In this document: positions 4,831-42,787 of the stretch, piece after piece
Layout of the letters: each line of letters starts with the position of its first letter
Position numbering within the stretch: position 1 is the stretch's first letter
From: Crocinitomicaceae bacterium
Lineage (GTDB): Bacteria; Patescibacteriota; Minisyncoccia; Phycocordibacterales; UBA1006
Direction of reading: 5' to 3'
Assembly: GCA_047637555.1 (NCBI GenBank)
Contig: JBLIKX010000002.1
Span: forward strand, 1-45,731
Length of the DNA: 45,731 bases
Notes under the pieces: model-generated
Told to the model about the DNA's origin: nothing
Database searches by the model: none
Seen by the model: only the letters and a program-made list of their open reading frames with translations
Program-made: the position numbers and the translations under genes

Positions 4831-5094
4831 ATGAGACGTCTTTTCCTTGGGTTACTTATTGTTACTGTGATTTTCTTTATACATCCAATTCTTGCACTTG
4901 TATTATCGGTCATTTTCGGTTTTTTGAATAGCTATGATTATTACGAAATAATCGCCACAGGTGTTGTAATTGATATTCTATATCAAAGCATTGTTAGTAT
5001 TGGTATTTTTTCACTTCCAATTTATACACTGTGCAGTCTGGCTCTATTTTTAACTATACGCCTGTTAAAAAAACAAATGAATTTTTATGCGTAA
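4831..5094 (+). CDS. Small integral membrane protein (possible MreD-like partner of PBP2)
   Basis: 87 aa, almost entirely hydrophobic (about 3 TM segments). It starts 2 nt after gdh and overlaps the PBP2 start by 8 nt. The function is inferred from position only. Confidence 0.45.
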   Translation: MRRLFLGLLIVTVIFFIHPILALVLSVIFGFLNSYDYYEIIATGVVIDILYQSIVSIGIFSLPIYTLCSLALFLTIRLLKKQMNFYA

Positions 5095-6781
5095 TTTTTT
5101 TAAGAGAAAATACAAAGACTACGAAATAGAACCAGATGAAATATTTATGGATGACGCTAATATTTCACAGCTTAATCGTCAGCAATTTGAAGGTGTAATT
5201 GAGCAACCTATTTCATCAAAAATACTTCTTATTTTAGGAAGTTTTTTCGTGGTAGTACTTTTAATTTTTTTTGGTAGATTATTTTTTCTACAATTAGTAC
5301 AGGGGGAAAATTTCTTAGCACGTTCTGAAGGAAATAGATTGCAGAGTAATCCAATTTTTGCTGAGCGAGGTGTTGTTTATGATCGTAATAAGGTTGAAAT
5401 TGCATGGAACACAAAAGCCGATAACGAGGATCTTTTCCTTTATAGGGCGTATACGGCACTGAGTGGTCATGGTCATTTACTAGGATATTTAAACTATCCT
5501 CAAAAAGATAATTTTGGAAATTTTTGGCGAACTGAAATAGAAGGGCAGGCTGGGATTGAGAAGAAAAATAACCAAACCCTCGCAGGAATCAACGGTGCAC
5601 AATTAACAGAGGTTGATGCCCTAGGAAATAAGTTATCTCAAAACATTATTTCTCAGCCTAAAAATGGTAAAAATATTAACACAACGGTTGATGCATATAT
5701 TCAGCATTACCTGTATGAGGCCATTAGAATCCAAGCAGAGGAAGCTGGTTTCGTTGGTGGCGCAGGAAGTATCATGGACGTTGAGACTGGAGAATTAATT
5801 GGATTTACAAGTTATCCTGAATTCGATCCTTATACTCTTGCAGAGGGATCAGATGTGGAAAAGATTAATGGTTTTTTTAATGATCCTCGAAAACCTTTTC
5901 TTAATCGAGTTCTATCAGGGGTTTACTCGCCTGGATCAACAGTGAAACCTTTTATAGCTTTAGCTGGACTTCATGAGGGTCTTATCAATGAGAATACTAC
6001 TATTTTGAGTACTGGTAAAATTGAAGTACCTAATCGGTTTAACCCCGCCAATTCTTCATTTTTTAGAGATTGGAGAAAAAGTGGTCATGGTGTGACTGAT
6101 GTTCGCCATGCCATTGCTGATTCAGTAAATACTTTTTTCTATGCACTGGGAGGAGGGTATCAAAATCAAGAAGGTTTAGGTATTACAAGGATTGAAAAAT
6201 ATATACGTCTTTTTGATATTGCTGAACCAACAGGTATTGATTTTGGAAATGAAGCTATAGGTACAATTCCAAATCCAGAATGGAAAGAGCGTATTTTTGA
6301 GGACGGAACCTGGCGTTTAGGTGATACCTATATTACTTCTATTGGTCAGTTTGGTTTTCAAGTAACACCAATTCAAATGACGCGGGCCACAGCAGCATTG
6401 GCTAATGGTGGTTTTTTACTACAGCCTATGTTGTTGAAACAAAAACCAAATAGGAAAATACTTGATATTAGTATTGATCCAACTGATTATGAACTTATTA
6501 GACTAGCAATGCGTGATACAGTAACTGAGGGAACCGCAAAGATTATAGACCTTCCATATGTTCAGATGGCAGCAAAGACAGGTACGGCCCAGGTTGGAAT
6601 TAATAATGAATTTTATAATTCTTGGATTATTGGATTTTTTCCCTATGACGAACCTAAGTATGCATTTAGTATTGTAATGGAGAGGGCTCTCAGTGATAGT
6701 GATGGTTCAGCAGGAAGAGCGATGCGTAATTTTATGGAAGGAGTACAAAATAACTACCCTGAATTTTGGGAGAGTATTTAA
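5087..6781 (+). CDS. mrdA: Penicillin-binding protein 2 (elongasome transpeptidase)
   Basis: N-terminal TM anchor and a PBP dimerisation domain. Transpeptidase motifs SxxK (STVK), SxN (SVN) and KTG (KTGTA) are present. Confidence 0.85.
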   Translation: MRNFFKRKYKDYEIEPDEIFMDDANISQLNRQQFEGVIEQPISSKILLILGSFFVVVLLIFFGRLFFLQLVQGENFLARSEGNRLQSNPIFAERGVVYDRNKVEIAWNTKADNEDLFLYRAYTALSGHGHLLGYLNYPQKDNFGNFWRTEIEGQAGIEKKNNQTLAGINGAQLTEVDALGNKLSQNIISQPKNGKNINTTVDAYIQHYLYEAIRIQAEEAGFVGGAGSIMDVETGELIGFTSYPEFDPYTLAEGSDVEKINGFFNDPRKPFLNRVLSGVYSPGSTVKPFIALAGLHEGLINENTTILSTGKIEVPNRFNPANSSFFRDWRKSGHGVTDVRHAIADSVNTFFYALGGGYQNQEGLGITRIEKYIRLFDIAEPTGIDFGNEAIGTIPNPEWKERIFEDGTWRLGDTYITSIGQFGFQVTPIQMTRATAALANGGFLLQPMLLKQKPNRKILDISIDPTDYELIRLAMRDTVTEGTAKIIDLPYVQMAAKTGTAQVGINNEFYNSWIIGFFPYDEPKYAFSIVMERALSDSDGSAGRAMRNFMEGVQNNYPEFWESI

Positions 6782-11390: not shown

Positions 11391-11391
11391 G

Positions 11392-11473
11392 TGCCGGAGG
11401 CGGGAATTGAACCCGCACGTCCGAAGACATGCGATTTTGAGTCGCACGTGTCTACCAATTCCACCACTCCGGC
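11392..11473 (-). tRNA. tRNA-Leu (anticodon CAA), class II with long variable arm
   Basis: Reverse complement: GCCGGAG acceptor, D-arm GTGGAATTGGTAGACAC, anticodon stem-loop TGCGA-CTCAAAA-TCGCA, variable arm GTCTTCGGAC, T-arm GCGGG-TTCAATT-CCCGC. No encoded CCA. Confidence 0.9.
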
Positions 11474-11562: not shown

Positions 11563-13044
11563 ATGTCAGAATATCAAAACAATTCTATTTTTTGGGTAGA
11601 AGCATCAAAAATTCAACCAAACCCTTATCAACCTCGAAAAGAGTTTGAACCACGTGCTCTTGAAGATCTTGCCGATTCAATTCGTCAGTATGGAGTGCTT
11701 CAACCACTGGTTGTAACACGCAAGGAAATTTTACGCCCAGATAATCATGGGATGGATGTTCATTATGAATTAATTGCTGGTGAGCGGCGACTGCGCGCTT
11801 CCAAGATTGCAGGATTAGCCCAAGTCCCAATTATTATTAGAAAAGAAACTGATAATAAGGTAAAACTAGAACTCGCAATTATTGAGAACTTACAGCGTGA
11901 AGATCTTAATCCCCTAGATCGTGCAGTTGCTTTTGAACAACTTTATAAGGAGTTTGAGCTAACTCATGCAGAGATAGGAAAAAAAATGGGAAAAAGTCGT
12001 GTTTATGTCTCAAATACCTTGCGACTTCTCTCTCTTCCTGACGAAATAAAGCAAGGGTTGTTACAAAGTCGCATTACCGAAGGGCATACACGTCCACTTT
12101 TGATGCTTACAGATCGTCCAGAAGAGCAGACGACCTTATTTAAAGAAATAATGGTTAAAAAAATGTCCGTTCGTGATGCTGAGAAGGTAGCTCGCAAAAT
12201 TGCACAGGACAAGGTTAGAAAAAAGGAATTTATTGTAGATCCTAAAATCCTTAGCTATGAAAAGCAACTCGCAGAGAATCTAGGAACTCGAGTACATATA
12301 GAGGCAAAAGAAAATGGGGGTCAAATTACCATTGATTATTTCACAATCAAGGATCTTGAACAAATATTGAGTTCAATGCAAAAAGTTGAGCGAGAACAGA
12401 GTATGATGGAAAATTACCTGACAGGTGAGGGGTTTAGTAAACAAGAGATAGATATAGAAAAATCTACAGGAATATCAATGAACAGTTCTCATGTAGACCC
12501 TGAAGTGGACAAAAAAGAAACTAGTCTCGATCTTCGACATAAGGGCTTGCCAGAGTATACAAAAAAACCACATACTGAAATTGAAAAGTATCATCAGGAG
12601 ATAACAGCTTCAGCTTCAGCTTCAGCTTCAAAAATAGAAATAAAAGATGAAATAAAAGATCACGTTCATGATTATAGTACAGAGCCACTTTATAGTGCTC
12701 CAGAGCAGGGGGTAGAAACTATTGAACATGCCCCTGAAGTTGTAATAGAAAACCCATCAAGTGAGATAAAAATTCCTCAAGTCTTAGTAGCATCTACATC
12801 TCTAGACTCTGAAAACTCACAATATCGAGAAAAAGAAATCCATTCGTCTGTTAACCAACATCAATTTCCCTTAGAACAGACCCCACAAGCGCCACGTTGG
12901 CCAGAAGAAACTCCTATTCAATCAGACCAAGCACAACAACAATACCAACAATATCAACAACCTGATGTTAATCAATCGTATGCGACTCAGCAAGAATATC
13001 AACAACCAAGAAAAAAAGGATTCTTTGGTAGATTATTTGGGTAG
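11563..13044 (+). CDS. parB: ParB/Spo0J-family partition protein with a ~220-aa low-complexity C-terminal extension ending in a MinD-like amphipathic motif
   Basis: ParB N domain (LQPLVVTR..., GERRLRAS), HTH (THAEIGKKMGKSRVYVSNTLRLL) and a dimerisation segment ending near residue 272 (GGQITIDYFTIKDLEQILSSM). An acidic, Q-rich tail follows and ends in RKKGFFGRLFG*. Confidence 0.9.
   Translation: MSEYQNNSIFWVEASKIQPNPYQPRKEFEPRALEDLADSIRQYGVLQPLVVTRKEILRPDNHGMDVHYELIAGERRLRASKIAGLAQVPIIIRKETDNKVKLELAIIENLQREDLNPLDRAVAFEQLYKEFELTHAEIGKKMGKSRVYVSNTLRLLSLPDEIKQGLLQSRITEGHTRPLLMLTDRPEEQTTLFKEIMVKKMSVRDAEKVARKIAQDKVRKKEFIVDPKILSYEKQLAENLGTRVHIEAKENGGQITIDYFTIKDLEQILSSMQKVEREQSMMENYLTGEGFSKQEIDIEKSTGISMNSSHVDPEVDKKETSLDLRHKGLPEYTKKPHTEIEKYHQEITASASASASKIEIKDEIKDHVHDYSTEPLYSAPEQGVETIEHAPEVVIENPSSEIKIPQVLVASTSLDSENSQYREKEIHSSVNQHQFPLEQTPQAPRWPEETPIQSDQAQQQYQQYQQPDVNQSYATQQEYQQPRKKGFFGRLFG
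12607..12630 (+). repeat. (GCTTCA)x4 in-frame hexanucleotide tandem repeat inside the parB tail
   Basis: Read directly from the sequence. It encodes ASASASAS. Confidence 0.9.
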
Positions 13045-13064
13045 TAATTATAATTTGTATTATC

Positions 13065-13094
13065 TAAAAAAACACTTACATGAGTGTTTTTTTA
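13065..13094. terminator. Bidirectional terminator between convergent parB and rel
   Basis: AAAAAAACACTTACATGAGTGTTTTTTT: stem ACACT(TA)/(TG)AGTGT flanked by A and T runs. Confidence 0.6.
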
Positions 13095-13195
13095 GATGTA
13101 TTATATATTAACTATCTTTGTGTTCAAAGAAAAAGTAAACTTATGTTTCTGAACACAACTCCAAATAAGTTAGATATAATTACTTGATTCTAGCT

Positions 13196-14662
13196 CTATG
13201 TAAAAAATTTATTCCAAAGACTATTTTCTTTCATATATTTTTCTATATGCTTACGAGCCATACTTGTCTTTGCATAAAGTAACCACTTACTTGAGGGAAC
13301 ACCACTTTTTATTGTCTGTATCTCGACAATATCACCACTGTGTAATATTTTTTTTAGAGCAGAGTGTTTTCCATTAACCTTTGATGACTGAGCTTTGTTT
13401 CCTATTTCACTATGAATGGCATAGGCAAAGTCAATAACCGATGCATCTTTTGGAAGATCTAGAACATCACCCGTAGGTGTAAATACAAAAATTCGATCTT
13501 CAAATAAATCAGTTTTTAACCCCTTAAGAAATTCTTTATCCGTATCTTTTTCTGATGTCTTTAGGTCCTTGAGGTCTTTGAGCCATTGTAATGAATGTTT
13601 ATCGGTCACGGTTGAACCTCGTTGTTTATAGACATGATGGGAGGCAAATCCATATTCTGCAAACTCATGCATCTCATTTGTTCTGACTTGAATTTCTGCA
13701 ATACCACCATCACCGGTGAATATTGTCGTGTGAATTGACTGATAACCATTGACCTTAGGAAGAGCAATATAGTCTTTAATTCGCCCAGGAAGAGGTCTCC
13801 ACATTGAATGGATAATACCAAGTACTCGATAGCAATCATCGATAGTAGGAACAACAACACGAAGCGCCACAATATCGTACATCTGTTCAATATCCATCTG
13901 CTTTCGTTGGAGTTTTTTCCAAAGACTGTAGCGGCCTTTTACGCGTTGGTGAGTAGTGATATCTTGTATCTTATGTTTTGCCATTTCTGTTTTCATTGAA
14001 CGCCATACTTTTTTAAGATATTTCTCATTCAATTTCTTCTTTTGCTTCATAAGATCGTCTACCATTTTTGCCTCAGCAGGATAAGCAAAAGGAAATGCCG
14101 CATCTTGCAACTGACCAACCATACGTCCCATTCCTAATCGATAAGCAAGCGGCGCATAAATATCAATAGTTTCAAGTGCAATACGTTTTTGTTTTTCAGG
14201 CTTAACAAATTCTAGAGTTTGAGCGTTATGTAGGCGATCAGCAAGTTTTATTATTACCACACGATAATCTTCTGCAGTCGCAATAAAAAATTTACGGAGT
14301 GATTCAACGTGACGTTTTTTACCTTGATATTTCAAGGTTCCTAGTTTTGTCACACCGTTTACCAGAAAGACAATTTCATCCCCAAATTGTTCTTGAATTT
14401 CTTTTTCTGTGACAGGAGTGTCTTCTATAGTGTCATGAAGAAAACCAGCCGCGATAGTTACTGTATCGAGACCATATTCAGCTAAATTTCGTGCCGTTGC
14501 AAATACATGCTTAAAATAGGGTTCACCACTAGCGCGTTTCTGAGGTTTGTGAGCTTCAAAGGCAGCGTCATAAGCCCTTTGAAGAAGTACCTTCTCTTTT
14601 TCAGTAGGAGTAATCCTCATTAAGCCATAGATTTCATTAATATCAGTACTATTCTTTTTCAT
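13196..14662 (-). CDS. rel: Bifunctional (p)ppGpp synthetase/hydrolase, RelA/SpoT homologue (HD + synthetase + TGS only)
   Basis: HD motif HDTIEDT; synthetase motifs RVKGRYSLWKKL, DIVALRVVV, YQSIHTTI, EIQVRT; TGS domain VFTPTGDVLDLPKDASVIDFAYAIHSEIG. I prefer the ATG at 14662 (TATAAT 7 nt upstream) to the TTG at 14689. Confidence 0.9.
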   Translation of the reverse strand: MKKNSTDINEIYGLMRITPTEKEKVLLQRAYDAAFEAHKPQKRASGEPYFKHVFATARNLAEYGLDTVTIAAGFLHDTIEDTPVTEKEIQEQFGDEIVFLVNGVTKLGTLKYQGKKRHVESLRKFFIATAEDYRVVIIKLADRLHNAQTLEFVKPEKQKRIALETIDIYAPLAYRLGMGRMVGQLQDAAFPFAYPAEAKMVDDLMKQKKKLNEKYLKKVWRSMKTEMAKHKIQDITTHQRVKGRYSLWKKLQRKQMDIEQMYDIVALRVVVPTIDDCYRVLGIIHSMWRPLPGRIKDYIALPKVNGYQSIHTTIFTGDGGIAEIQVRTNEMHEFAEYGFASHHVYKQRGSTVTDKHSLQWLKDLKDLKTSEKDTDKEFLKGLKTDLFEDRIFVFTPTGDVLDLPKDASVIDFAYAIHSEIGNKAQSSKVNGKHSALKKILHSGDIVEIQTIKSGVPSSKWLLYAKTSMARKHIEKYMKENSLWNKFFT

Positions 14663-14669
14663 ACTTATA

Positions 14670-14675
14670 ATTATA
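14670..14675 (-). promoter_or_regulatory. -10 box (TATAAT) 7 nt upstream of the rel ATG, candidate leaderless promoter
   Basis: The minus strand reads GTGTATAAT-tataagt-ATG. No Shine-Dalgarno is possible in this spacing. Confidence 0.45.
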
Positions 14676-14755
14676 CACACGAAGAACAAAATAATAAATC
14701 AAAAGCAACAATATGATATACTCTAGTTACTTAATCGTTATTACTATATATTATT

Positions 14756-15626: not shown

Positions 15627-17294
15627 ATGAAAAAAAATAAAAACAAAAAATACATATTCGTTGTCGGAGGAGTCATGTCAGGTGTAGGAAAGGGAATAAC
15701 GGCATCCTCAATTGGAAAAATTCTTCAGTTTTCTGGGTATAAGGTTTCCGCAGTAAAAATTGATCCTTATGTAAATGTTGATGCTGGAACGATGAATCCA
15801 GCTGAACATGGAGAAACATTTATTCTTGAGGATGGGTATGAAACCGATCAAGATATGGGAAATTATGAACGCTTTTTAAATACATCGTTGACGCGAGATT
15901 CTTACATGACGACGGGTTCAATATATCACAAAGTTATTAGTAAAGAGCGATCACTTGGATATAAAGGTAAAACTGTTTCAGTTGTTCCACATGTACCAAT
16001 GGAAGTGATTAATCAAATTAAGCGATCTAATACAAAAGAATCTGCTGATATTACTATAGTTGAAATTGGAGGTACCGTTGGTGAATATGAAAATATTTTA
16101 TTTTTAGAGGCTGCAAGAATGATGAAACGTCAGAATCCTAATGATGTTGCCTTTGTTCTTGTTTCATATTTACCAGTTCCTAATACCCTTGGTGAAATGA
16201 AAACAAAACCTACGCAACAAGCAGTCAGAATACTTCAAGAATCAGGAGTATTCCCAGATATTATTGTTGGTCGGAGTCCATGCGCAATGGATACCAAGCG
16301 CAAGAAAAAAATAGCTACCGCATCAATGCTGCATGAGGATGATATTATTTCGGCTCCAAATTTAGAGAGTATTTACGATCTTCCTGATTATTTTCTGGGT
16401 GAAGAATTAGATGTTAAACTTTTAAAAAAATTACAGCTAAAGACGCGTAAAAATGAATCTGCAAAGAAAAATAAATTAGGATGGAATAGATTTGTACGAA
16501 AAACCAAAAACCACAAAGAAGAAATACTTATTGCTGTTGTTGGTAAATATTTTAACACCGGCGATTTTGTACTATCTGATGCCTACGTCTCAGTTATTGA
16601 AGCTCTAAAATTTTCTGGTGCACATACTGGTATTAAGGTAAGCATTGATTGGTTACAAGCTCAAGATTTTGAAGGTGCATCTGGAAAAAATAAGATAAAA
16701 GAACTCAAAAGATACTCGGGGATATTAGTACCTGGCGGTTTTGGAACATCAGGGATAGAAGGTAAGATTAATGTTATAGAATACGCTCGTACAAAAAAAA
16801 TTCCTTTTTTTGGAATTTGTTTAGGTATGCAAATGGCGTCGGTTGAATTTGCTCGTAATGTACTCATGATGACTGATGCTCATAGTACTGAATCGAATAT
16901 AAAAACACCATTTCCAATTGTTGATATTTTATTAGAACAAAAAGAAAAATTGAAAAAAGGAGATTATGGTGGGTCAATGCGACTTGGTCTGTACACTGCT
17001 CATTTAAAAAAAGCTACTCTTGCAAGAAAAATCTATAAATCTAATATTATCAACGAGCGTCATCGACATCGTTATGAGCTGGTTACAAATCAATACGAGG
17101 CCGTATTTGCTAAAAAAGGATTTATCATTTCAGCAACTTCTCCAGATGGAATGCTTCCAGAAATTATTGAACTTGATCAAAAAAAACATCCTTATTTTAT
17201 TGCGGTTCAGTTCCATCCTGAATGCAAGGCACGACCGTTAGAACCGCATCCTCTGTTCAATGAATTTATTAAAGCTTCGTTAAAATTCAAATAA
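15627..17294 (+). CDS. pyrG: CTP synthase
   Basis: N-terminal synthetase domain GGVMSGVGKGI. The C-terminal glutaminase domain has the catalytic Cys in GICLGMQ and HRHRYE. Confidence 0.95.
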   Translation: MKKNKNKKYIFVVGGVMSGVGKGITASSIGKILQFSGYKVSAVKIDPYVNVDAGTMNPAEHGETFILEDGYETDQDMGNYERFLNTSLTRDSYMTTGSIYHKVISKERSLGYKGKTVSVVPHVPMEVINQIKRSNTKESADITIVEIGGTVGEYENILFLEAARMMKRQNPNDVAFVLVSYLPVPNTLGEMKTKPTQQAVRILQESGVFPDIIVGRSPCAMDTKRKKKIATASMLHEDDIISAPNLESIYDLPDYFLGEELDVKLLKKLQLKTRKNESAKKNKLGWNRFVRKTKNHKEEILIAVVGKYFNTGDFVLSDAYVSVIEALKFSGAHTGIKVSIDWLQAQDFEGASGKNKIKELKRYSGILVPGGFGTSGIEGKINVIEYARTKKIPFFGICLGMQMASVEFARNVLMMTDAHSTESNIKTPFPIVDILLEQKEKLKKGDYGGSMRLGLYTAHLKKATLARKIYKSNIINERHRHRYELVTNQYEAVFAKKGFIISATSPDGMLPEIIELDQKKHPYFIAVQFHPECKARPLEPHPLFNEFIKASLKFK

Positions 17295-24597: not shown

Positions 24598-25698
24598 CTA
24601 CTGGGACTCTCGAGCTTGTTTAATTAATGTAGCTAAATCAAATGAAAAGTCATCGTTTTTTTTAGACGTATTTTTTTGTGATTTAATTCTTAAAGTATTT
24701 ATTTTATTGCTTTGAGATTCTTTGGGAATAGGGGACCAGGTTAACTCTGAAAGCCCTTCATTTAATACTTCTATGAATTGTTCCTTACTGATAGTCGTTG
24801 CACTTACGCCGTCTGGATTAACACCTCCATTTTGGATAGTGTTGGTAGCTGTATCATAGTACCATTGCTGTAATTCAGGAATTTTCCCATACTGTGCTAA
24901 ATCTTTATCTGAATATTTATGTTCAATTTGAAGGTTACTTAATTCCATTGTTCTAATTCTGTGAGTGAGACTACGCAGATCAATTCGTTTTGTTGGTCTC
25001 GTAAGTATGTTTGCGTGACCTGTTTCTTGTAACTGTAAAACGACATCATACGCACCACCTATTTTCGAGCGTAGGAACCCAGCAATGGTTGGAATATTTG
25101 TCTCAACGATAATAACACTAAGGTTCTTTTTTCGTTGTTTAATTATAAACGTATTTATTTTATTTTCTAATTTCAGTTGTTCAACTAAAGCAGGAATTAC
25201 TTTTGTACGTTGCTCTTCTTCATGATGATGTGCAGCCAGTAAGGGAATAATATTTTGTACAACATGGGTTGGATTATCTGAATACGTTTTATTGAGACAT
25301 GTAAGTAGCCCCGGAAGACCAAAAGCCCTATCAAGTGGGTCTTTTGAAATTGTTCCCTTACCGTAAAAATCATCACGTTCAGCAAGTTCTAGTAGTTTTA
25401 TTATTGATTGATCTTCCGTTATTTCGAGGTACTCTGCAACAAGTTTTGCAACGGTAGTTTTTTCTGATTGATTATGGTGATCAAAGATTCCCTTACCAGT
25501 ATCAATAGCAATAGTTCCTTGTTTCCATAATTCTATATCAGAGACATCAGGAGAGTTAGGATTCATTTCAATTTTCAGGTCAGATATGTTGAATGTTTCA
25601 CCTCCATAGCGTACAAGTAAATATATTGCAATACAGGTATCGGTTTGTGGACGCACAGGTAAAATTATAGTATTTATGTCGTACATAATGTTTATCAT
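24598..25698 (-). CDS. Hypothetical protein with a DHH/MYG1-like N-terminal motif (366 aa)
   Basis: Residues 65-76, IDTGKGIFDHHN, resemble the MYG1 (D.GG......FDHHQ) and DHH phosphoesterase metal site. The first MYG1 motif is degenerate (RPQTDT instead of H.DE). The rest is unrecognised. An alternative start lies at 25686. Confidence 0.5.
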   Translation of the reverse strand: MINIMYDINTIILPVRPQTDTCIAIYLLVRYGGETFNISDLKIEMNPNSPDVSDIELWKQGTIAIDTGKGIFDHHNQSEKTTVAKLVAEYLEITEDQSIIKLLELAERDDFYGKGTISKDPLDRAFGLPGLLTCLNKTYSDNPTHVVQNIIPLLAAHHHEEEQRTKVIPALVEQLKLENKINTFIIKQRKKNLSVIIVETNIPTIAGFLRSKIGGAYDVVLQLQETGHANILTRPTKRIDLRSLTHRIRTMELSNLQIEHKYSDKDLAQYGKIPELQQWYYDTATNTIQNGGVNPDGVSATTISKEQFIEVLNEGLSELTWSPIPKESQSNKINTLRIKSQKNTSKKNDDFSFDLATLIKQARESQ

Positions 25699-25721: not shown

Positions 25722-25751
25722 AAAAAAAAGACACAATATTGTGTCTTTTTT
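25722..25751 (-). terminator. Intrinsic terminator after ftsZ
   Basis: The minus strand reads AAAAAAGACACAATATTGTGTCTTTTTTTT, a palindromic 10-bp stem followed by eight T residues. Confidence 0.75.
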
Positions 25752-25752
25752 A

Positions 25753-26898
25753 CTACTTCCTTCCTCCTCGACGCAAGAATGCTGGTACCGCTGACCAGTC
25801 TTCTTCATTGTCATCAATTTCTTCTATTTCTTCTATTTCTTCAGTTTCCTTCTTAATGTTATTTTTTAGTGGTTTTTCCTCAGAAGGCATTGGTTCTGTT
25901 TCATTTTTTTTGAATGCATTAAATGCTGGTTTTTTTGTCTGTACGCCATCAAAACCTGTAGCAATTACGGTAACCTTGATTTCACCATTTTTTAGTTTAT
26001 TATCCCGAATTGTTCCAAAAATAACTCGAGCAGTTGAATCAATAGATTCAGTAATGATTGATGCAATTTCGTTTACTTCGTTCATAGTCAGATCGTCTCC
26101 ACCAGAGATAGCAAAGAGAACACCTTTTGCTCCATCAATAGCAATATCTAATAGAGGAGAGTTAATTGCCTCAAGTGCAGCGTCTTTACCTCGGTTTTCA
26201 CCAGATGCACGTCCAATACCCATAAATGCAGCACCAGTGTCAGATAGGGTTGTTTGAATGTCAGCATAATCAATATTGATAATACCTGGAGTGGTAATCA
26301 ATTCAGAAATTCCTTCAACCGCTTGTTTTAAAATATCGTCTGAAATATCGAATGCTTCTTTAAAACTCATATCGTCTCCAGCAATAGAAAGTAATCGATC
26401 GTTTGGAATAGTAATCAAGGCATCAACCTCTTTTTCCAGAGCTTCAATACCTGCTTCTGCAATGCGTCGTCGTTGTTCTCCTTCAAAGGCAAAAGGTTTT
26501 GTAACTACTCCTATGGTAAGGATTCCTTGTTCTTTTGATGTTCGAGCAACAACAGGAGAGGCTCCTGTACCTGTTCCACCTCCCATACCAGCAGCCACAA
26601 AGACCATGTCGGCTCCTTTCATGGCTTCTTGGATTTCTGCTTTAGTTTCTTCTGCTGCTGCCTGTCCAATTTCTGGGTTCATCCCTGAACCTAAACCTTT
26701 GGTAAGGTTTTTTCCGATATGTATTTTTTTTGTAGCATGTGAGTGATGAAGGTCTTGGGTATCTGTGTTTACCGCAATAAATTCAACTCCTGTGATTTTA
26801 GCGTCAATCATATGATTAACAGCATTTGTTCCTCCTCCTCCAACACCGATTACTTTGATCCGTGCGAATGTTTCAATTTCTGGGTTAATTTTTGGCAT
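25753..26898 (-). CDS. ftsZ: Cell division GTPase FtsZ
   Basis: Tubulin signature GMGGGTGTGASPVVA. An acidic linker with EEI repeats precedes the conserved C-terminal peptide DWSAVPAFLRRGG. Confidence 0.95.
   Translation of the reverse strand: MPKINPEIETFARIKVIGVGGGGTNAVNHMIDAKITGVEFIAVNTDTQDLHHSHATKKIHIGKNLTKGLGSGMNPEIGQAAAEETKAEIQEAMKGADMVFVAAGMGGGTGTGASPVVARTSKEQGILTIGVVTKPFAFEGEQRRRIAEAGIEALEKEVDALITIPNDRLLSIAGDDMSFKEAFDISDDILKQAVEGISELITTPGIINIDYADIQTTLSDTGAAFMGIGRASGENRGKDAALEAINSPLLDIAIDGAKGVLFAISGGDDLTMNEVNEIASIITESIDSTARVIFGTIRDNKLKNGEIKVTVIATGFDGVQTKKPAFNAFKKNETEPMPSEEKPLKNNIKKETEEIEEIEEIDDNEEDWSAVPAFLRRGGRK
25817..25843 (-). repeat. 3 x 9-nt in-frame tandem repeat in the FtsZ C-terminal linker
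   Basis: The plus strand reads ATTTCTTCT ATTTCTTCT ATTTCTTCA, encoding E-E-I repeats. Confidence 0.85.
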
Positions 26899-26985
26899 AA
26901 TAGTATAGGTAATATAAATTAATCGATAGCTTTATTCTAGCAAAATAGCTTACTACTGCAAGACCTTTGTAAGCATTTAAAATCT

Positions 26986-28152
26986 TTAAGGCATTATTTG
27001 GTTAAACCAATAGTCAAGTGATCGTTTGATATTCTTTATTGATAAAGCTTTTGATGAAAAATGTTGATGTCCACGTTTACTCACGCATAGTCCGTATGCG
27101 ATTGAAAATTGATTTGGAACTTGCAATTGTCTCTTTGTTTTTTTAGATGTTTTGAATAGTGTCAATGATTCAGAGGGAAGTTTAAGTTCCTCTTTGGCAT
27201 ATTCATTAATATGTTCCAAATGAGCACCTCCACCGGTAAAGATTATTCCTGCAGGAAGAAGACGATTCTTTTTTATTTTATTTAAATGTCTATCAGCCAG
27301 CTCAAGAATATCTGAAATCCGTGCATATATTATTTCTTCTACTTTTCTTTTTGGTTGGTCATTCTTTCTCCCTTTTTTTATTTCATCAGCTTCCTCTAAA
27401 GGGATTTGTAACCCTAGTGCGATATCATTAGTGATATCGTTTGACCCAATAGCTAGAATATCCAAAGACGTAATAATACTATTTTCAAATGTTGCAATGG
27501 ATGTCGTTTCTGCACCGATATTCGTAACCATGCATCCTTGCGTCTTTTGTTTATAATCTGCGGCTGCGGCCGCATCTGCAATAGGGCTAGCGATAACATC
27601 GATAACTCCTAAATTATTTTTTTGAATAACAGAAATCAAGGCATCGTAGTGATGTTCTAGTATTGTGATAAAAATAACTTTTACCTCAATAGTATTTCCG
27701 TACATTCCAATTGGTGTCCCTAGTACATCCCGTCCGTCTACTCGGTACTTAACGGGGATAATATGAAGTATTTTTTTATTTGGGTATTTATTAACAAATA
27801 GTTCTTCTGATTTTAGAATAACCTCCTCTACATTTTTTTCAGAGATTTCATTATTTTTTTTAGTGATATCTACTGAAGTTCTCACATACTGTGAACAAAG
27901 CCCCACACCGCCGATAGAAAAACGAGCTTTGATAATTTTTTCTTTGTATTCTCGTTCAGCTTTTGTAATAAGGAGCGCTAAGGACTCTGTTGCCTTTTCT
28001 TGATCAACGATGTATCCATGGCGAAAACCATGCGCAGGAGATTCTACAGCATGAAGTATTTTAGGTAATTGGTTTGATGCAGACGGCTCGGTTATAACGA
28101 GTTTTATTGCAGAGGTACCAATGTCTATTCCAATGAGATGATCGTTGTTCAT
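26986..28152 (-). CDS. ftsA: Cell division protein FtsA
   Basis: Actin-fold motifs IGIDIGTSAIK, TNIGAETTS and FTGGGAHLEHI. The C-terminal amphipathic tail is KNIKRSLDYWFNQIM. Confidence 0.9.
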   Translation of the reverse strand: MNNDHLIGIDIGTSAIKLVITEPSASNQLPKILHAVESPAHGFRHGYIVDQEKATESLALLITKAEREYKEKIIKARFSIGGVGLCSQYVRTSVDITKKNNEISEKNVEEVILKSEELFVNKYPNKKILHIIPVKYRVDGRDVLGTPIGMYGNTIEVKVIFITILEHHYDALISVIQKNNLGVIDVIASPIADAAAAADYKQKTQGCMVTNIGAETTSIATFENSIITSLDILAIGSNDITNDIALGLQIPLEEADEIKKGRKNDQPKRKVEEIIYARISDILELADRHLNKIKKNRLLPAGIIFTGGGAHLEHINEYAKEELKLPSESLTLFKTSKKTKRQLQVPNQFSIAYGLCVSKRGHQHFSSKALSIKNIKRSLDYWFNQIMP

Positions 28153-31032: not shown

Positions 31033-32568
31033 TTATATCTCCTTAACAACTTCAATATTTGCTCCGATTGAGTTTAAACGTTCAACAATATTCTCGTATC
31101 CGCGTTTAATTGAGTACACATTACGTAATATTGATCGTCCTTCGATTCCAAGCATTGCCACTAAAATCATTGTTGATGGTCGTAATGCAGGAGGGCAAAC
31201 AATTTCACCCGCATACATTTTTTGACCACCCTCAACAAGTACTCGGTGTTGATCAGCCAGGCGCACAGAAGCCCCGAGTCTATTTAGCTGTGTAAAATAG
31301 ATTGCTCTGTTTTCCCACATCCAATCATGAATAAGGGTGGTACCTTTTGCTACCATTGCGACTGGGACAAAGAACGGCAAATTATCGGTATTGATTCCAG
31401 GGTACGGCTGAGCATGTATTTTATCGCTCAAAGCAACAAGATCGCCTGATTCTTTGACTGTAATATCAACTAAATCTGTGTGTTTATTTTTTGATTTATA
31501 TACTTTTGATCGCTTCATTTTAACCCCCATTTTTTCTAGTTTTAGGAGTTCAACCTTAAGGAAGTCAATTGGACATCGTTTAACAGTAAGAGTTGAATTT
31601 GTGACTATGGCAGATGCAATAAACATCATTGATTCAATTGGATCCTCACTATTGTGGTGCTCTACATCGATATTGATATTCTTAATACCATGAATAGTTA
31701 ATTTTAATGACCCAATACCTTCAATTTTAACACCAAGTTTTTGAAGATAGAAACAAACATCTTGGACCATATAATTCTGTTGTGCGAAATGAATAATGGT
31801 TTTACCTGGGATTCCCGCCGCCGCAATAACAATATTTTCAGTCGCAGTATCAGAGGCTTCATACATAACAATTTCAGCAGGTTTTAGTTTTTTTCGTTCA
31901 ACTAAATAACCTGTATTTTTGGTTGTAATAGATACACCTAATTGTTCAATTCCATGTTTATGAGCGACAATAGTTCGTTCTCCCATTTTGCATCCACCAG
32001 CTGTTGGGATTTCAAATGATTTAATATGATGAATTAGCGCACCAATTGACATCATAAATGACCGTACCCTTCGCGCAGATTTTTTATTGATTTCGTTAAA
32101 CTTAAATCGTTTAGGTGGAGTAATTTTGATTGAATGTTCTTTTACCCATTCAACCTTTACTCCAATACTTTGAAATATTTCTATAATACGATGTACCTCT
32201 TGAATGTTTGGAATACCGTGTAGAGTTGTAACACCTTTGTTCAAGAGGGAAGCATGCATTAATCCCATGGCACCATTTTTTGAGGTATTACTTTCGATTG
32301 AACCTTTTAACTTTTGACCTCCATTAATAATAAAATCATCACGTTCTTCTCGGTGTAATTTGATTAATTGATGATCCAAAACGTTTCCAATTTTAAGCAG
32401 TTCTTGTGTTGAAAAATTCTGCCCACCTTTTTCCATACGTGCAACGGCTGATTGAGCTGTTCCAAGTTTTTTAGCAAATTGAGCTTGGGTAAGACCTCTT
32501 TGTTTTCTGATCGAACGGATGAATTTACCAATTCTTGCTTGTTCTTTTTCAAATTGTTTTAGATTCAT
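31033..32568 (-). CDS. murA: XRE-family helix-turn-helix domain fused to UDP-N-acetylglucosamine 1-carboxyvinyltransferase (MurA)
   Basis: Residues 1-~72 (IGKFIRSIRKQRGLTQAQFAKKLGTAQSAVARMEKGGQNFS) form a typical HTH_3/XRE domain. The rest aligns with MurA from its first strand (DDFIINGGQKLKGSI) and keeps the catalytic residues: Lys (TSKNGA), Cys (AGGCKMGERT), Asp (NTDN) and Arg (ALRPST). There is no Met or stop at the junction. Confidence 0.85.
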   Translation of the reverse strand: MNLKQFEKEQARIGKFIRSIRKQRGLTQAQFAKKLGTAQSAVARMEKGGQNFSTQELLKIGNVLDHQLIKLHREERDDFIINGGQKLKGSIESNTSKNGAMGLMHASLLNKGVTTLHGIPNIQEVHRIIEIFQSIGVKVEWVKEHSIKITPPKRFKFNEINKKSARRVRSFMMSIGALIHHIKSFEIPTAGGCKMGERTIVAHKHGIEQLGVSITTKNTGYLVERKKLKPAEIVMYEASDTATENIVIAAAGIPGKTIIHFAQQNYMVQDVCFYLQKLGVKIEGIGSLKLTIHGIKNINIDVEHHNSEDPIESMMFIASAIVTNSTLTVKRCPIDFLKVELLKLEKMGVKMKRSKVYKSKNKHTDLVDITVKESGDLVALSDKIHAQPYPGINTDNLPFFVPVAMVAKGTTLIHDWMWENRAIYFTQLNRLGASVRLADQHRVLVEGGQKMYAGEIVCPPALRPSTMILVAMLGIEGRSILRNVYSIKRGYENIVERLNSIGANIEVVKEI

Positions 32569-33050: not shown

Positions 33051-34061
33051 ATGTCAATTTTTTCAAAGAAATTAGGTATCGACCTAGGTACTACTAATAT
33101 TTTGGTCTATGTTCCAGGTAAGGGTGTTATTCTTGACGAACCCTCTGTCGTTGCTATTTCAGTCCAAGATAATAAGATTCTCGCTATAGGATCTGAAGCC
33201 AAACAAATGATCGGACGAACCCCTGATGGTATTGTAGCTTACCGACCTATGAAGGACGGTGTTATTGCAGACTATCGTGTCACAGAAAAAATGCTTCGCT
33301 ATTATTTCAAAAAAGCTCTTGGTAAATGGAACATTATGAAACCAGACGTACTCTTGTCAGTTCCTGCGGGGATTACATCAACTGAACGTCGAGCTGTAAT
33401 AGAGGCTGCACGAAGGGCAGGAGCTAAAAATGCCTATGTTATAAAAGAACCAATACTAGCAGCTATTGGTGCAGGAATTTCAATTCAGCAACCAAATGGA
33501 TACATGATAGTGGATATTGGGGGCGGAACTATTGATGTAGCTGTGATTTCACTTGGAGGAATCGTTACTTCTAATTCTGTAAAATGTGCTGGTAGACGTC
33601 TAGATGGATCGATTATTGATTACATAAAAAAAACCTACAATCTAGCTATAGGAGATCGAACTGCCGAAAAAATTAAAATCAAAATTGCATCTGCTATTCC
33701 GCTTGATGATGAGTTAGAGGTACTGATAAAAGGGCGTGACTATATTACGGGTCTTCCTCGTTCTGTTAAAATTTCAACTAACGAAATTACCAAAGCCATT
33801 GATGAGGAATTAAAAATTATGATCCAGGCATTAAAAGATGTATTAGCCCAAGTCCCACCAGAACTGGCTTCAGATATTATTGATAACGGAATCACGATGA
33901 CGGGAGGAACGTCACAACTACGGAACCTTACAGACCTTATACATCGCCGGACAGGTGTTCAAGCCTATTTGGTTGAAGACCCATTGTTTTGTGTAGCACG
34001 GGGGACTGGGATTGCTTTAGATCATCTTGATACTTATAAAAAAGCCATTATCAGTAAATAA
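33051..34061 (+). CDS. mreB: Rod shape-determining actin homologue MreB
   Basis: Contains LGIDLGTTNILVY, DIGGGTIDVAVISLGG and MTGGTSQLRNL. TGaTACTAT lies 6 nt upstream of the ATG. Confidence 0.95.
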   Translation: MSIFSKKLGIDLGTTNILVYVPGKGVILDEPSVVAISVQDNKILAIGSEAKQMIGRTPDGIVAYRPMKDGVIADYRVTEKMLRYYFKKALGKWNIMKPDVLLSVPAGITSTERRAVIEAARRAGAKNAYVIKEPILAAIGAGISIQQPNGYMIVDIGGGTIDVAVISLGGIVTSNSVKCAGRRLDGSIIDYIKKTYNLAIGDRTAEKIKIKIASAIPLDDELEVLIKGRDYITGLPRSVKISTNEITKAIDEELKIMIQALKDVLAQVPPELASDIIDNGITMTGGTSQLRNLTDLIHRRTGVQAYLVEDPLFCVARGTGIALDHLDTYKKAIISK

Positions 34062-38190: not shown

Positions 38191-38214
38191 GAGAGACCAT
38201 TAGGTCTTTTTTTT
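38191..38214 (+). terminator. Intrinsic terminator after rseP
   Basis: GAGAGACC-atta-GGTCTTTTTTTT. Confidence 0.6.
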
Positions 38215-38227
38215 GTATACTAGTTCT

Positions 38228-39679
38228 ATGTTAATTACGGCTCTACTAAATAAAATAAAAACTAAAGATATTATTGGTTCTATGGAAAAAGATGTTGTAT
38301 TTCTCTCTCAGGATTCACGAGAAATTGAACATAGGGGTAGTTGTTATTTTGCAGTACCGGGAACTCAGGTTGATGGACACGACTACATTGATCAGGCTAT
38401 TAAGAATGGTGCTAGTGTTGTTGTATGTGAGATATTACCTGTTCATTTCAATAAAATTGTTACTTTTGTTGTCGTTGAGAATGTCAGAAAATCAATGGGA
38501 GAAGTTGCCTCTCATTTTTACGGTAACCCTTCAAAAGAAATTACTATTATCGCAGTAACAGGAACAAATGGAAAAACCAGTATTGCAACCTATGCTTCTC
38601 AGATACTTCAAAGTTTCGAGAAAAAAGTACTCCTACTTTCAACTGCTGGGGATTATTTCAATAGTATTAAGATACATATTAATAGAAAAGCTCCTTCTTC
38701 TCTGGAGGTTATAGAATTACAGAGAATCCTAAGGCACTACGTTGATCAAGGGGCAACGCATTGTTGTCTCGAAGCAACATCACAAGGTCTAGATCAAGAT
38801 AGGCTCTCTGGAGTTGATGTTGATATTGCTATCTTTAGTAATCTTGAGCGAGATCACCTTGATTATCATAAGACAATTGAAAATTATGCTGCCGCTAAAA
38901 AAAAATTATTTGATGATCTAAAAAAAGAGGCTATCGCGATAAGTAATTATGACGATCCCTGTGGAAAAATGATGATCAAAAACACCAAGGCAAAGGTTAT
39001 TAGTTATGGTAATAATAATAAGTATGATTATTCCTTTGATGCACCTCTTGTGGCCTTAGGAATGATTAATTGTAATTTTAATGCTAAACCTGTCTCTCTT
39101 CCTGTTGTTGGTTTATTTAATATTTATAATCTGTTAGTAGTGTATTCACTGTTATGTGAGCTTGGGTTTAGCACTCTAGATATCATTGAAAAGCTAAACA
39201 ATATATCAGGTGTACCTGGTCGAATGGAGCAAGTTATTAATAAGAGAAATATCCTGGCTCTTGTTGATTATGCTCACAGTCCCGGTGCTGTTGAATCAGT
39301 TTTATCTTCTCTAAAAGAAATTCCTCATAATAATATTATTACAGTGATTGGTTGTGGAGGTGATCGGGATAGAACTAAACGACCATTAATGGCTGCTGTC
39401 GCTCAACAAATGAGTGATCACGTTATCTATACCTCTGATAACCCTAGAACTGAATCCTTAGATCAAATTTTTTCTGATATGAGTTCAGGTATTAATCAGG
39501 ATAAGCAGAACTTTGAATATATTTCATCACGTGAAGAAGCTATTGTCTCAGCAATAAAAAACGCAGATAAGGGTGATATAATTTTGGTTGCAGGTAAGGG
39601 TCATGAAGATTATCAGATTATTGGTACTAAAAAGATACATTTTAATGATGTAGAGATTATGACAAAATATTTGTCATAG
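38228..39679 (+). CDS. murE: UDP-N-acetylmuramoyl-L-alanyl-D-glutamate--2,6-diaminopimelate ligase
   Basis: Mur ligase P-loop GTNGKTS. The DNPR motif (YTSDNPRTE) indicates meso-DAP specificity. I prefer the ATG at 38228 (TATACT 6 nt upstream) to the TTG at 38213. Confidence 0.9.
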   Translation: MLITALLNKIKTKDIIGSMEKDVVFLSQDSREIEHRGSCYFAVPGTQVDGHDYIDQAIKNGASVVVCEILPVHFNKIVTFVVVENVRKSMGEVASHFYGNPSKEITIIAVTGTNGKTSIATYASQILQSFEKKVLLLSTAGDYFNSIKIHINRKAPSSLEVIELQRILRHYVDQGATHCCLEATSQGLDQDRLSGVDVDIAIFSNLERDHLDYHKTIENYAAAKKKLFDDLKKEAIAISNYDDPCGKMMIKNTKAKVISYGNNNKYDYSFDAPLVALGMINCNFNAKPVSLPVVGLFNIYNLLVVYSLLCELGFSTLDIIEKLNNISGVPGRMEQVINKRNILALVDYAHSPGAVESVLSSLKEIPHNNIITVIGCGGDRDRTKRPLMAAVAQQMSDHVIYTSDNPRTESLDQIFSDMSSGINQDKQNFEYISSREEAIVSAIKNADKGDIILVAGKGHEDYQIIGTKKIHFNDVEIMTKYLS

Positions 39680-39749
39680 GTATTATTTTTCAATGAATCC
39701 CGAATAATAGACCTTACGATACGAACTACCGGTTGAACTCAAAGAACTT

Positions 39750-39776
39750 AAAAACAACTCACAATGAGTTGTTTTT
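39750..39776. terminator. Bidirectional terminator shared by convergent murE and murC (overlaps the last murC codons)
   Basis: AAAAACAACTCA-caa-TGAGTTGTTTTT. Confidence 0.6.
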
Positions 39777-41075
39777 AAGCGCATGACTAAATTTCCAAAT
39801 GTCTCCAGCCCCTGCACTAACAACAATGTATTTGTTGTTAAATTGCATTGATTTAAATTGTTTAATGAAATCATTAGTTTCACTAACCGTTATTAGCTCT
39901 ACCTTTGATGTATCAATATATTGTTCTAGCAGGTAATTTTCCTGAGGAATTTCATCTTCACGGGCGCGGTAGGTTGGAAATAAATAAAGAATATCTACCT
40001 TTTCTACAGCCTGAGCAAATTCATTTTTAAAGTCTCGAGTTCGAGAATAGAGATGTGGCTCAAACAACATAATAATTTTTTTGTCTGGATAAAAATCGCG
40101 TAAACCTTTTATTAAATAAGTTAGACCTTCTGGGTTATGCGCATAGTCATCAAATATTTGAATACCAGAAGTGGTCATTCCTACATGTTCCATTCTACGC
40201 TGTACTCCTTGAAAATATTTAGCGAGATATTCACGTGCATCAACAAGAGAGAGTCCAAGAGCCTCTATAACTCCTAGGGTCGCTGCAGCATTTTGAAGAT
40301 TATGTTCTCCTGGAAGGGATAGTGTAAGATCTTTGGTGAGATGTTTACGATAATCAATAATTGTAATATTCTCTTTCTTTGCCTCATTAATTATTGTCAA
40401 TAAGTGAGGTTGATCTGTGTTACATACGAGAACTCCATCTTTTTTGTGATTCTTTAAAAATTTCTTAAAGGTGTCTTGTATATGAGCAAGGTCAGAAAAA
40501 TAATCTAAATGATCTTCAGTAATATTAGTCACAACAAGAATATCATAGTAAATATTCAAAAAAGATTCTTTGTATTCACATGCTTCAGTAATAAAAAAAT
40601 CAGATTGCCCTGAAACATAGTTGCTGTCATATTTCTGAAGTAGAGCACCAACGATACCAGAAGGGTCTGCGCCTAGGTGTTTCATGACTTCAATAATCAT
40701 TGCGGTAGTCGTTGTTTTACCATTAGTTCCTGAGACAGCTATGGTTTTTTTTATTGCTGATATTTTACCTAAAAGCTCTGGGTAAGACATTAATGGAATA
40801 TCATAGTTCAGTGCCTCCTTGTATTCTATGTTGGATGCTGGAATTGCTGGGGAATATACTACTAAATCATGATCCACATGAATGTTTTCTGCTCTAGCTC
40901 CTATAAATATTTGAGCCTCATAATTATCTTCTAGATCCTTGGTTAAGGATGATGTCTGAACATCAGAACCAGTTACCGTTATGTTATAGTCTCGCGCTAG
41001 CTTTGCCATAGCTGATACACCAACGCCACCTATACCTATAAAATGTATTTTTTTAATTCCCTCAAAAAGTTTCAT
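39759..41075 (-). CDS. murC: UDP-N-acetylmuramate--L-alanine ligase
   Basis: N-terminal HFIGIGGVGVSAMA and P-loop GTNGKTTTTAM. TATAAT lies 7 nt upstream of the ATG. Confidence 0.9.
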   Translation of the reverse strand: MKLFEGIKKIHFIGIGGVGVSAMAKLARDYNITVTGSDVQTSSLTKDLEDNYEAQIFIGARAENIHVDHDLVVYSPAIPASNIEYKEALNYDIPLMSYPELLGKISAIKKTIAVSGTNGKTTTTAMIIEVMKHLGADPSGIVGALLQKYDSNYVSGQSDFFITEACEYKESFLNIYYDILVVTNITEDHLDYFSDLAHIQDTFKKFLKNHKKDGVLVCNTDQPHLLTIINEAKKENITIIDYRKHLTKDLTLSLPGEHNLQNAAATLGVIEALGLSLVDAREYLAKYFQGVQRRMEHVGMTTSGIQIFDDYAHNPEGLTYLIKGLRDFYPDKKIIMLFEPHLYSRTRDFKNEFAQAVEKVDILYLFPTYRAREDEIPQENYLLEQYIDTSKVELITVSETNDFIKQFKSMQFNNKYIVVSAGAGDIWKFSHALKNNSL

Positions 41076-41120
41076 ACTTTTAATTATAAACGTTCTACAA
41101 ATAAAAAAAACTTATATAAG

Positions 41121-42494: not shown

Positions 42495-42501
42495 GTATTC
42501 A

Positions 42502-42507
42502 AGTATA
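42502..42507 (-). promoter_or_regulatory. -10 box (TATACT) 7 nt upstream of the murD ATG
   Basis: The minus strand reads GGTATACT-tgaatac-ATG. Confidence 0.45.
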
Positions 42508-42771
42508 CCTATAGATCTTTTTTAATAAAGTAATAGTAACCATTAAATACTTGAACTCTCATCAGTAAATCACAATATAAGAAAAGAAATCATAAAAATG
42601 CCAGTAATAAAAGCAGTAAAAAAATTTGTACTTATTTGTATTACTTTTATTTGTTTGTAAATAGTGCGGCCAATTGTTGGAGACAATATTAGTGCTCAGT
42701 ATAGATAATTTATAACCACACATTAAGACAGTGAGTCTTTATTTTTCGAAGATTTTTTTCTTTTGTAATTT

Positions 42772-42780: not shown

Positions 42781-42787
42781 TTTTGAT

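Follow-up and report, generated by a model that had tools for sequence, protein, structure and literature searches.

For chromosome segregation in bacteria without ParA, the known answers are recent and limited to Firmicutes cocci: RocS in the pneumococcus and RicO in Staphylococcus aureus. RocS links DNA to the membrane in Streptococcus pneumoniae, a host without ParA, where it works with ParB and has a role in segregation (bioRxiv 10.1101/359943). Solid-state nuclear magnetic resonance and atomic force microscopy revealed that its anchor peptide, AKEEVQATKKGFFARLFGGK, inserts into the membrane as a "kink-helix", and chromosome segregation is impaired in the G155E mutant (PMC13042908). RicO also joins an N-terminal sequence-specific DNA-binding domain to a C-terminal amphipathic helix; it lacks a ParB fold, occurs in Firmicutes only and recognizes its own ricS motif (bioRxiv 10.64898/2026.03.06.710092). 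Noc of Bacillus subtilis and S. aureus is a ParB family member without the ParA-binding motif that recruits DNA to the membrane by an amphipathic helix of its own. Here we describe a parB gene (positions 11563..13044, + strand) carried by a 45.7-kb stretch of DNA, hereafter the window (taxon names are throughout those assigned by depositors). Its product is a complete ParB followed by a long, predicted disordered tail, the end of which closely matches the membrane anchors of MinD and RocS, at a locus from which parA has apparently been lost.

Functionally, the window protein is closest to RocS and RicO, with Noc next; by family membership it belongs with ParB and with neither Noc nor RocS. The original prediction made from this sequence had invoked Noc as the analogue. 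This analogy holds insofar as a ParB fold carries its own predicted membrane helix, but the closest analogue is the RocS/RicO type, a DNA binder with a C-terminal helix found in bacteria without ParA, and the specificity residues are those of ParB. RocS shares with the window protein the anchor sequence KKGFF(A/S)RLFG, 9/10 identical (KKGFFGRLFG in the window, KKGFFARLFG in S. pneumoniae), and a spacer between the DNA-binding part and the anchor. However, RocS is a small separate protein (helix-turn-helix (HTH), DUF536/coiled coil, anchor) that has no ParB fold and binds ParB in trans, whereas the peptide of the window protein is joined to ParB itself, with an acidic linker predicted to be disordered in place of the coiled coil. 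Escherichia coli MinD, which ends in EEEKKGFLKRLFGG (NC_000913.3), matches the window peptide at 8/10 positions at the extreme C-terminus (KKGFLKRLFG versus KKGFFGRLFG), in agreement with the near-identity noted previously. Yet the carrier in the window is a ParB CTPase-fold DNA clamp and not a ParA/MinD ATPase, and its peptide lies about 220 residues from the folded domain while that of MinD follows directly. Noc differs in that its helix is N-terminal, beside the cytidine triphosphate (CTP) domain, and CTP-gated; in that it binds Noc-binding sites (NBS) by means of QKKR residues; and in that it is a Firmicutes paralogue coexisting with Soj-Spo0J. No N-terminal amphipathic membrane helix was found in the window ParB, the N-terminus of which, MSEYQNNSIFWVE, has no basic residue or extension. 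Finally, canonical ParB/Spo0J proteins, including those of the Sungbacteria loci L128 and L129, share with the window protein the three domains, the GERRxRA motif, the R173/G201-type residues and a convergent rel gene downstream; they differ by an LGRGLESLIP ParA-binding peptide on an N-terminal extension of about 40 amino acids (aa), by ending a few residues past the dimerisation domain, and by their location directly after parA.

ParB core, predicted disordered tail and terminal peptide

The parB open reading frame (ORF) consists of 493 codons and a stop codon, and residues 1-272 of its product constitute a complete ParB, as the original prediction had it from an arginine-rich GERRLRAS patch, an HTH and a dimerisation segment. 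The start codon was assigned on the basis of the conservation of the N-terminus in homologues. Pfam models (ParB_N, HTH_ParB and ParB_C) place the N-terminal CTPase-fold domain at residues 12-111 (11596..11895, +; PF02195, E=4.7e-28, 97.5 bits against a cut-off of 26.3), the HTH DNA-binding domain at residues 113-214 (11899..12204, +; PF17762, E=3.7e-31, 107.7 bits) and the C-terminal dimerisation domain at residues 226-271 (12238..12375, +; PF23552, 38.9 bits against 23.8). All three far exceed the curated gathering cut-offs, and the protein scores 168 bits with the NCBIfam model TIGR00180 (ParB/RepB/Spo0J), for which the cut-off is 58. The closest sequences in the PDB are the Spo0J/ParB proteins of Thermus, Bacillus, Caulobacter and Helicobacter (E=1e-45 to 1e-41). 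The GERRxRA CTP-binding motif corresponds to GERRLRAS at residues 73-80 (11779-11802, +), in which G73 to R78 are invariant across 46 aligned sequences, and a protein with this motif would be expected to bind and hydrolyse CTP and to form a clamp on DNA.

The remainder of the gene (12379-13044) corresponds exactly to residues 273-493 plus the stop codon, that is, to a tail of 221 aa. As described before, this tail is acidic, Q-rich and of low complexity (E 13%, Q 12%, S 11%); it contains the segments TASASASASK and QQQYQQYQQ and terminates in QQPRKKGFFGRLFG. Its net charge is -20 when the last 11 residues (RKKGFFGRLFG), which carry +4, are excluded. A moderately conserved helical extension follows the dimerisation domain (residues 273-306; 12379..12480, +; AlphaFold2 helices 262-286 and 291-302), with conserved columns at M281, M282, Y285, L286, L298, S301, T302 and F306 among the 46 sequences. 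Residues 307-482 (12481..13008, +) form a Q/S/E-rich linker that is Q/Y-rich near the terminal peptide and was classed as disordered and acidic from predicted local distance difference test (pLDDT) scores, composition and charge. In the AlphaFold2 model, computed from the 46 aligned sequences, the core is confident while nearly all of residues 308-481 fall below a pLDDT of 50, without secondary structure, which agrees with the disorder anticipated for the tail; pLDDT then climbs to about 65 at the C-terminus, where a short helix is modelled (residues 488-491). Tail length ranges from 108 to 410 aa among the 46 homologues, and the tails are otherwise unalignable.

The last 11 residues (483-493; 13009..13041, +) form a predicted C-terminal membrane-targeting peptide, identified by its match to the MinD and RocS anchors. 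An ending of the form [KR]KK[GS]F[FL]x[KR][LI]F[GS] is present in 53/121 sequences (the query and its 120 best homologue clusters). Pairwise identity among the 46 aligned homologues is 0.81 in the core and 0.07-0.19 in end-anchored 11-aa windows of the tail, and rises to a mean of 0.61 in the last 11 aa, a value that is partly built in because these 46 sequences were picked for the motif. Phenylalanine occupies position -2 without exception, and variation is rare at K-10, K-9, G-8 and F-7. At the sequence level, the informative point is that half of the nearest ParBs have an identical terminal peptide on otherwise unrelated tails. Moreover, the last 12 codons show synonymous differences among four loci (the window, L001, L002 and L089). 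The retention of a KKGFFxRLFG ending in orthologues, on which the original prediction had been made to depend, is therefore borne out for the terminal peptide, the remaining tail not being conserved. A neighbour-joining tree of ParB cores resolves one clade with this ending and a sister clade with a different one.

The same peptide terminates many other proteins. We searched genomes, one for each species, for DNA coding for K-K-G-F-[FL]-x-[KR-like]-[LIMF]-F-G-stop, for which about one chance match is expected from base frequencies, and obtained at least 120 loci (L008-L127), at which 111 ORFs of at least 60 aa end in the motif. Among these listed ORFs, which span many bacterial phyla and archaea, 21 code for MinD (20 at E<=3e-59 and a weak one at 5e-14 by phmmer against E. 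coli MinD), eight for FtsY (SRP54 GTPase), nine for globins, six for HMA-domain proteins and four for hemerythrins, to which are added two each of RNase E/G, DnaJ, PrmA and HerA and one PBP5-type D-Ala-D-Ala carboxypeptidase. Archaeal ORFs with this ending are located at L043, L047, L053, L054, L125 and L127. The MinD proteins of Thiotrichales, Granulosicoccus and Campylobacterales end in KKGFFKRLFG. A match in Streptococcus castoreus (L029) has the architecture of RocS: 192 aa with an HTH, DUF536 and a coiled coil but no ParB domains, ending in GPKKGFFSRLFG, which is 9/10 identical to the window peptide; its BLASTP alignment with the window ParB is limited to the last 10 residues. KKGF[FL]x[KR][LIM]FG-stop thus appears to behave as a portable C-terminal membrane tag on many families in bacteria and archaea. 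On account of its sequence identity to validated anchors (8/10 and 9/10 positions) and its recurrence across families, we assign the window peptide to this widespread portable MinD/RocS-type class, by virtue of which the window ParB would bind the membrane. If the motif is indeed an anchor, the globins, hemerythrins and metallochaperones that it would tether to the membrane may also merit attention.

That the tail results from an assembly or frameshift artefact, or from non-coding read-through, is effectively refuted. Nothing was found in favour of this explanation, even though the ASASAS and QQYQQ repeats could in principle cause indels. An independent JGI contig (P0001) encodes a protein of 490 aa, 99% identical, with an in-frame 3-aa shortening in the Q-rich repeat and the same ending; the reading frame extends to the terminal motif in more than 50 homologues from JGI, ENA, NCBI and Logan; the terminal codons vary synonymously, as seen above; and a terminator-like hairpin, with a 17-pair stem followed by a T-rich tail (13061-13098, +), lies after the stop codon between the convergent parB and rel genes.

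ParA and the architecture of related ParB proteins

The view that parB is an orphan, with no parA/soj in the window, was confirmed across the 45.7 kb. No Pfam ParA/MinD domain was detected in the 34 ORFs scanned out of the 38 of at least 110 aa (the other four lie inside larger ORFs), and tblastn searches of the window with two Patescibacteria ParAs and E. coli MinD returned best E-values of 0.045-0.16, versus 1e-119 and 1e-8 for positive controls. Likewise, no parA/MinD gene was found within ±10 kb of parB in the related loci L001, L002, L003 and L005. The gene is flanked as initially reported: a tRNA-Leu(CAA) gene predicted by ARAGORN lies upstream on the opposite strand (11391..11473, -), filling the short gap that is the place of parA in other Patescibacteria, and a RelA/SpoT homologue with HD_4, RelA_SpoT and TGS domains (rel; 13196..14689, -) lies downstream in convergent orientation and serves as a syntenic marker. 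The parB-rel arrangement is also present in L001, L002 and L005, and the order DUF975 - parB - rel (convergent) - (Band 7) - CTP synthase is shared by a JGI contig of 636 kb and a Pacebacteria metagenome-assembled genome. By comparison, parA lies directly upstream of parB, itself followed by a convergent RelA/SpoT gene, in L128 (the 923-kb CP066690.1) and L129. Setting parA-parB-rel against the parB-rel of the window identifies the window gene as the positional orthologue of chromosomal parB, at a locus where, as this synteny indicates, parA was deleted, the N-terminal peptide was lost and a tail was gained. The CTP synthase gene (pyrG; 15627-17294, +) is located 2.5 kb downstream of the CTP-dependent ParB and is also found near parB in L001 (14185-15903) and L002 (13913-15577); this proximity may be coincidental synteny.

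Loss of the partner is mirrored in the protein. The ParA-binding motif [LFI]G[KR]G[LFI] is known to co-evolve with an adjacent parA (PMC12704722), and it occurs in none of the 121 sequences formed by the query and its 120 closest homologues. The segment that precedes PNPxQPR is only about 18 aa long in window-type ParBs, without N-terminal extension, and residue 14 of the query aligns to residue 28 of Thermus thermophilus Spo0J, from which we conclude that the N-terminal ParA-binding peptide is missing. A profile search of 1.84 billion representatives yielded 137 further ParBs, and 232 sequences with complete cores were compared. Twelve of the 232 have an N-terminal extension (median 42 aa) that bears the ParA motif, and their tails measure a median of 4 aa, while the other 220 have neither motif nor extension and carry tails with medians of 126-259 aa across three classes of tail end. 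The two architectures are mutually exclusive in this set. Both belong to Patescibacteria: the motif-bearing, tail-less proteins come from Sungbacteria and Parcubacteria, and long ParBs retrieved in the homologue search are named as "Candidatus Pacebacteria" and "Campbellbacteria". According to Dataset S1 of a recent survey, which lists parB presence only, chromosomal parB is found in just 19% (26/135) of near-complete Paceibacterales species, compared to 96-100% of Saccharimonadales, Moranbacterales, Sungbacterales, Levybacterales and Daviesbacterales species (PMC12704722), which makes the ParB status of Paceibacterales unusual and patchy.

Most of the Patescibacteria ParBs that we found have no ParA motif and a tail that ends in an acidic peptide rather than in the anchor-like one. 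This ending, ..MLDDRS..E.D.N.DLY(N/S)[IV]xNF[ST][ILV] at the stop codon, occurs in at least 112/232 complete ParBs, in the sister clade (P0061-P0120 and P0121-P0257), for example at 8744-9853 of L003, where no parA is present within ±10 kb and the neighbourhood differs from that of the window. Judging from its sequence, it looks like a protein-docking peptide for a partner. Inside the anchor clade, P0027, P0031, P0032 and P0033 (L005, 10001-11587) have swapped their ending for ..DPYLEPI(S/T)DED..F, and other endings are found elsewhere; the C-terminal label was therefore exchanged several times. In a distant ParB clade, P0184 (902 aa) has the ending KKKGFFARLFGK, which may have been gained independently. 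It is conceivable, although we hold this only tentatively, that a whole branch of Patescibacteria abandoned ParA and moved the "partner handle" of ParB from the N-terminus to the end of a disordered tail, with a lipid anchor in one clade and an acidic docking peptide in the much larger sister group acting as interchangeable tags by which ultra-small cells would segregate their chromosomes without ParA.

Proposed membrane attachment and competing explanations

The interpretation that we favour is that the window protein is a ParB that acts independently of ParA and attaches the DNA to which it is bound to the membrane, in effect a fusion of ParB and RocS; membrane binding and a role in segregation are probable on this account. 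On this reading, which we consider reasonably likely, a Patescibacteria lineage of the Paceibacteria type has had its chromosomal parB orthologue adapted to function in the absence of ParA. For MinD-type sequences, binding to the membrane is expected to require dimerisation or avidity, a single MinD anchor (monomer) binding poorly. In the proposed mechanism, ParB dimers would load on DNA sites as CTP clamps and accumulate, each dimer exposing two weak anchors at the ends of flexible tethers that are 221 residues long and negatively charged, with a contour length in the range of tens of nanometres. Through its acidity, the tether would keep the tail away from DNA and from the anionic membrane surface, leaving the basic hydrophobic tip to insert. 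A lone anchor would bind poorly, whereas a loaded ParB-DNA complex, with its many anchors, would be retained through avidity, so that a multimeric partition complex, with probably origin-proximal DNA, would be pinned to the cytoplasmic membrane. If the cell is very small, such attachment combined with envelope growth and septation could part sister origins without a ParA gradient. RocS fulfils this task next to ParB in the pneumococcus, and RicO in S. aureus.

Several observations weigh against this scheme. The conservation of the last 11 residues was computed on motif carriers, as mentioned, and several sublineages inside the anchor clade carry replaced endings, which implies that the anchor is not indispensable. 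At 0.39, the Eisenberg hydrophobic moment of the terminal 11 aa is not above that of shuffled peptides (last 10-11 residues, 5000 shuffles). The same test is equally unremarkable for E. coli MinD, and published moments of proven anchors are low (0.245 for RocS and 0.424 for MinD; PMC13042908); given that validated anchors also score low, the test is non-discriminating and carries no weight either way. The amphipathic helix that the original prediction placed at the ending would correspond to the short AlphaFold2 helix at the C-terminus. In the HTH, H135 (11965-11967) replaces a glutamine conserved in ParB and Noc (Caulobacter Q162), and this histidine is invariant in the clade. No canonical parS site (TGTTNCACGTGAAACA, <=2 mismatches) was found in the window or in nine related loci, and matches with three mismatches are at chance level. 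Canonical parS is also absent from the parAB loci L128 and L129, and the perfect palindromes of the window include no parS candidate. The chromosomal origin lies outside the window, and the parS of these Patescibacteria may differ from the consensus. In the window and these loci, the parS search suggested at the outset gave no canonical site; the specificity residues are of the parS type. Finally, the absence of ParA and MinD applies to the window and to ±10 kb in its relatives, and a ParA, a MinD or a second ParB is possible elsewhere in the genome.

A membrane-anchored ParB could instead act like Noc, spreading over many chromosomal sites, drawing DNA up to the membrane and thereby hindering Z-ring formation above the nucleoid, in which case it would mainly control the division site rather than segregation. 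In principle it is built like Noc, with an amphipathic helix added to a ParB fold (PMC4331003; bioRxiv 10.1101/2021.02.11.430593), no Min system is seen in the window, ftsZ/ftsA are located 13 kb away, and the Noc model TIGR04285 is the highest-scoring NCBIfam model. This score, however, is 204.3 bits against a cut-off of 315, and the four positions defined by Jalal et al. 2020 as determining ParB/Noc specificity (PMC7383237) are R146/T152/S157/G174, which is the parS (ParB) type and not the QKKR of Noc. R146 and G174, the equivalents of Caulobacter R173 and G201, do not vary, and T152 and S157 are among the residues permitted; the window ParB is therefore not Noc-like in its reading of DNA. 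No NBS (ATTTCCCGGGAAAT, <=2 mismatches) was found in the window or in the fetched loci. Synteny also makes the gene an orthologue of the parB found in parA-parB-rel loci rather than a paralogue neighbouring a canonical parAB, and the helix of its product, at the end of a long C-terminal tether, is remote from the CTP domain, which means that the CTP gating of Noc cannot apply directly. We consequently regard a Noc-like function as unlikely. That an anchored ParB would serve some other process is improbable as well, be it membrane-proximal silencing, the formation of condensates by the Q/Y-rich tail or the handling, at the envelope, of incoming DNA in pilus-bearing, naturally competent episymbionts. 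Orphan ParB-fold proteins are known to have many roles besides segregation (PMC12704722), a pilin-like gene lies 1.5 kb upstream of parB, and the Q/Y-rich composition is akin to that of prion-like segments. On the contrary, the domain set is that of a full canonical ParB with a core identity of about 80% across the clade, synteny with parAB loci argues that the ancestral chromosomal role was retained, and nothing specific ties the gene to uptake or regulation.

It is more improbable again that the terminal peptide, instead of anchoring in lipid, is a protein-docking motif, an "address label" for a divergent ATPase, for example, or for a cytoskeletal protein of the actin or tubulin type (FtsA, MreB, FtsZ). 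A folded domain followed by a long disordered linker and a short conserved C-terminal peptide is the layout of the FtsZ and SSB tails, which bind partners, and the acidic ..DDLYS[IV]xNF[ST][ILV] ending of sister Patescibacteria ParBs resembles a protein-binding peptide. However, the motif is found on about 50 unrelated families among the bacterial and archaeal matches listed, a recurrence that fits a generic lipid ligand and not a specific protein partner, and it is a proven membrane anchor in MinD and RocS. An identical peptide, KKKGFFGRLFG, ends the tail of the actin-binding Heimdallarchaeota gelsolin 2DGel (PDB 7WHF chain G), which could be read as a sign of docking. Yet beyond 10 residues this tail is disordered in the crystal and not on actin, and the only effect reported concerns localisation, a fusion of green fluorescent protein to the tail being kept out of the nucleus; its function was left open by the authors (PMC9433394). 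We therefore rejected an actin-binding reading of the gelsolin structure as support. The gelsolin ending may itself anchor Asgard cytoskeletal regulators to the membrane, a role that would have gone unrecognised.

Other window features and implications

Besides parB and its neighbours, the window holds ftsA-ftsZ (25753-28152, -), mreB, a gene for a PBP2-type transpeptidase and four Mur ligase genes (25753-28152, 33051-34061 on the + strand, 5087-6781 on the + strand and 38213-44092 for this set), and Min genes were not seen. FtsZ has a normal C-terminal peptide (..WSAVPAFLRRGGRK) and FtsA a hydrophobic/basic C-terminal stretch (..IKRSLDYWFNQIMP). A perfect 18-bp palindrome, AGACACAATATTGTGTCT (25729-25746), which could be a terminator or an operator, lies within the 54 bp that separate ftsZ (25753-26898, -) from the next ORF (24598-25698, -), the 366-aa product of which has no Pfam match. 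Another ORF (31033-32568, -) encodes a protein of 511 aa in which an XRE-type HTH (HTH_3, residues 17-65) is fused to an EPSP-synthase/MurA-type enolpyruvyl transferase (residues 82-498); the relative in L005 is the enzyme without the HTH.

Full-text searches and the ParB survey of PMC12704722 disclosed no published description of a ParB with a C-terminal MinD/RocS-type anchor or of the tail architectures of Patescibacteria; this 2025 survey of ParB-fold fusions uses neither "amphipathic" nor "Patescibacteria" (PMC12704722). Three changes coincide in the sequences that we examined, namely the loss of parA at the locus, the loss of the N-terminal ParA-binding peptide and the gain of a C-terminal tail. 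Such co-occurrence amounts to a natural "Rosetta-stone" fusion and supports a functional link between ParB and a membrane anchor. The window gene suggests that the candidate phyla radiation came separately to the solution of RocS and RicO, the pinning of ParB-bound DNA to the membrane, by fusion of a RocS/MinD-type anchor to ParB itself. If true, a ParB-CTP partition complex bolted to the membrane would be a natural realisation of the replicon model of Jacob, Brenner and Cuzin, and would provide a simple, testable model of chromosome segregation for ultra-small and largely uncultivated cells.

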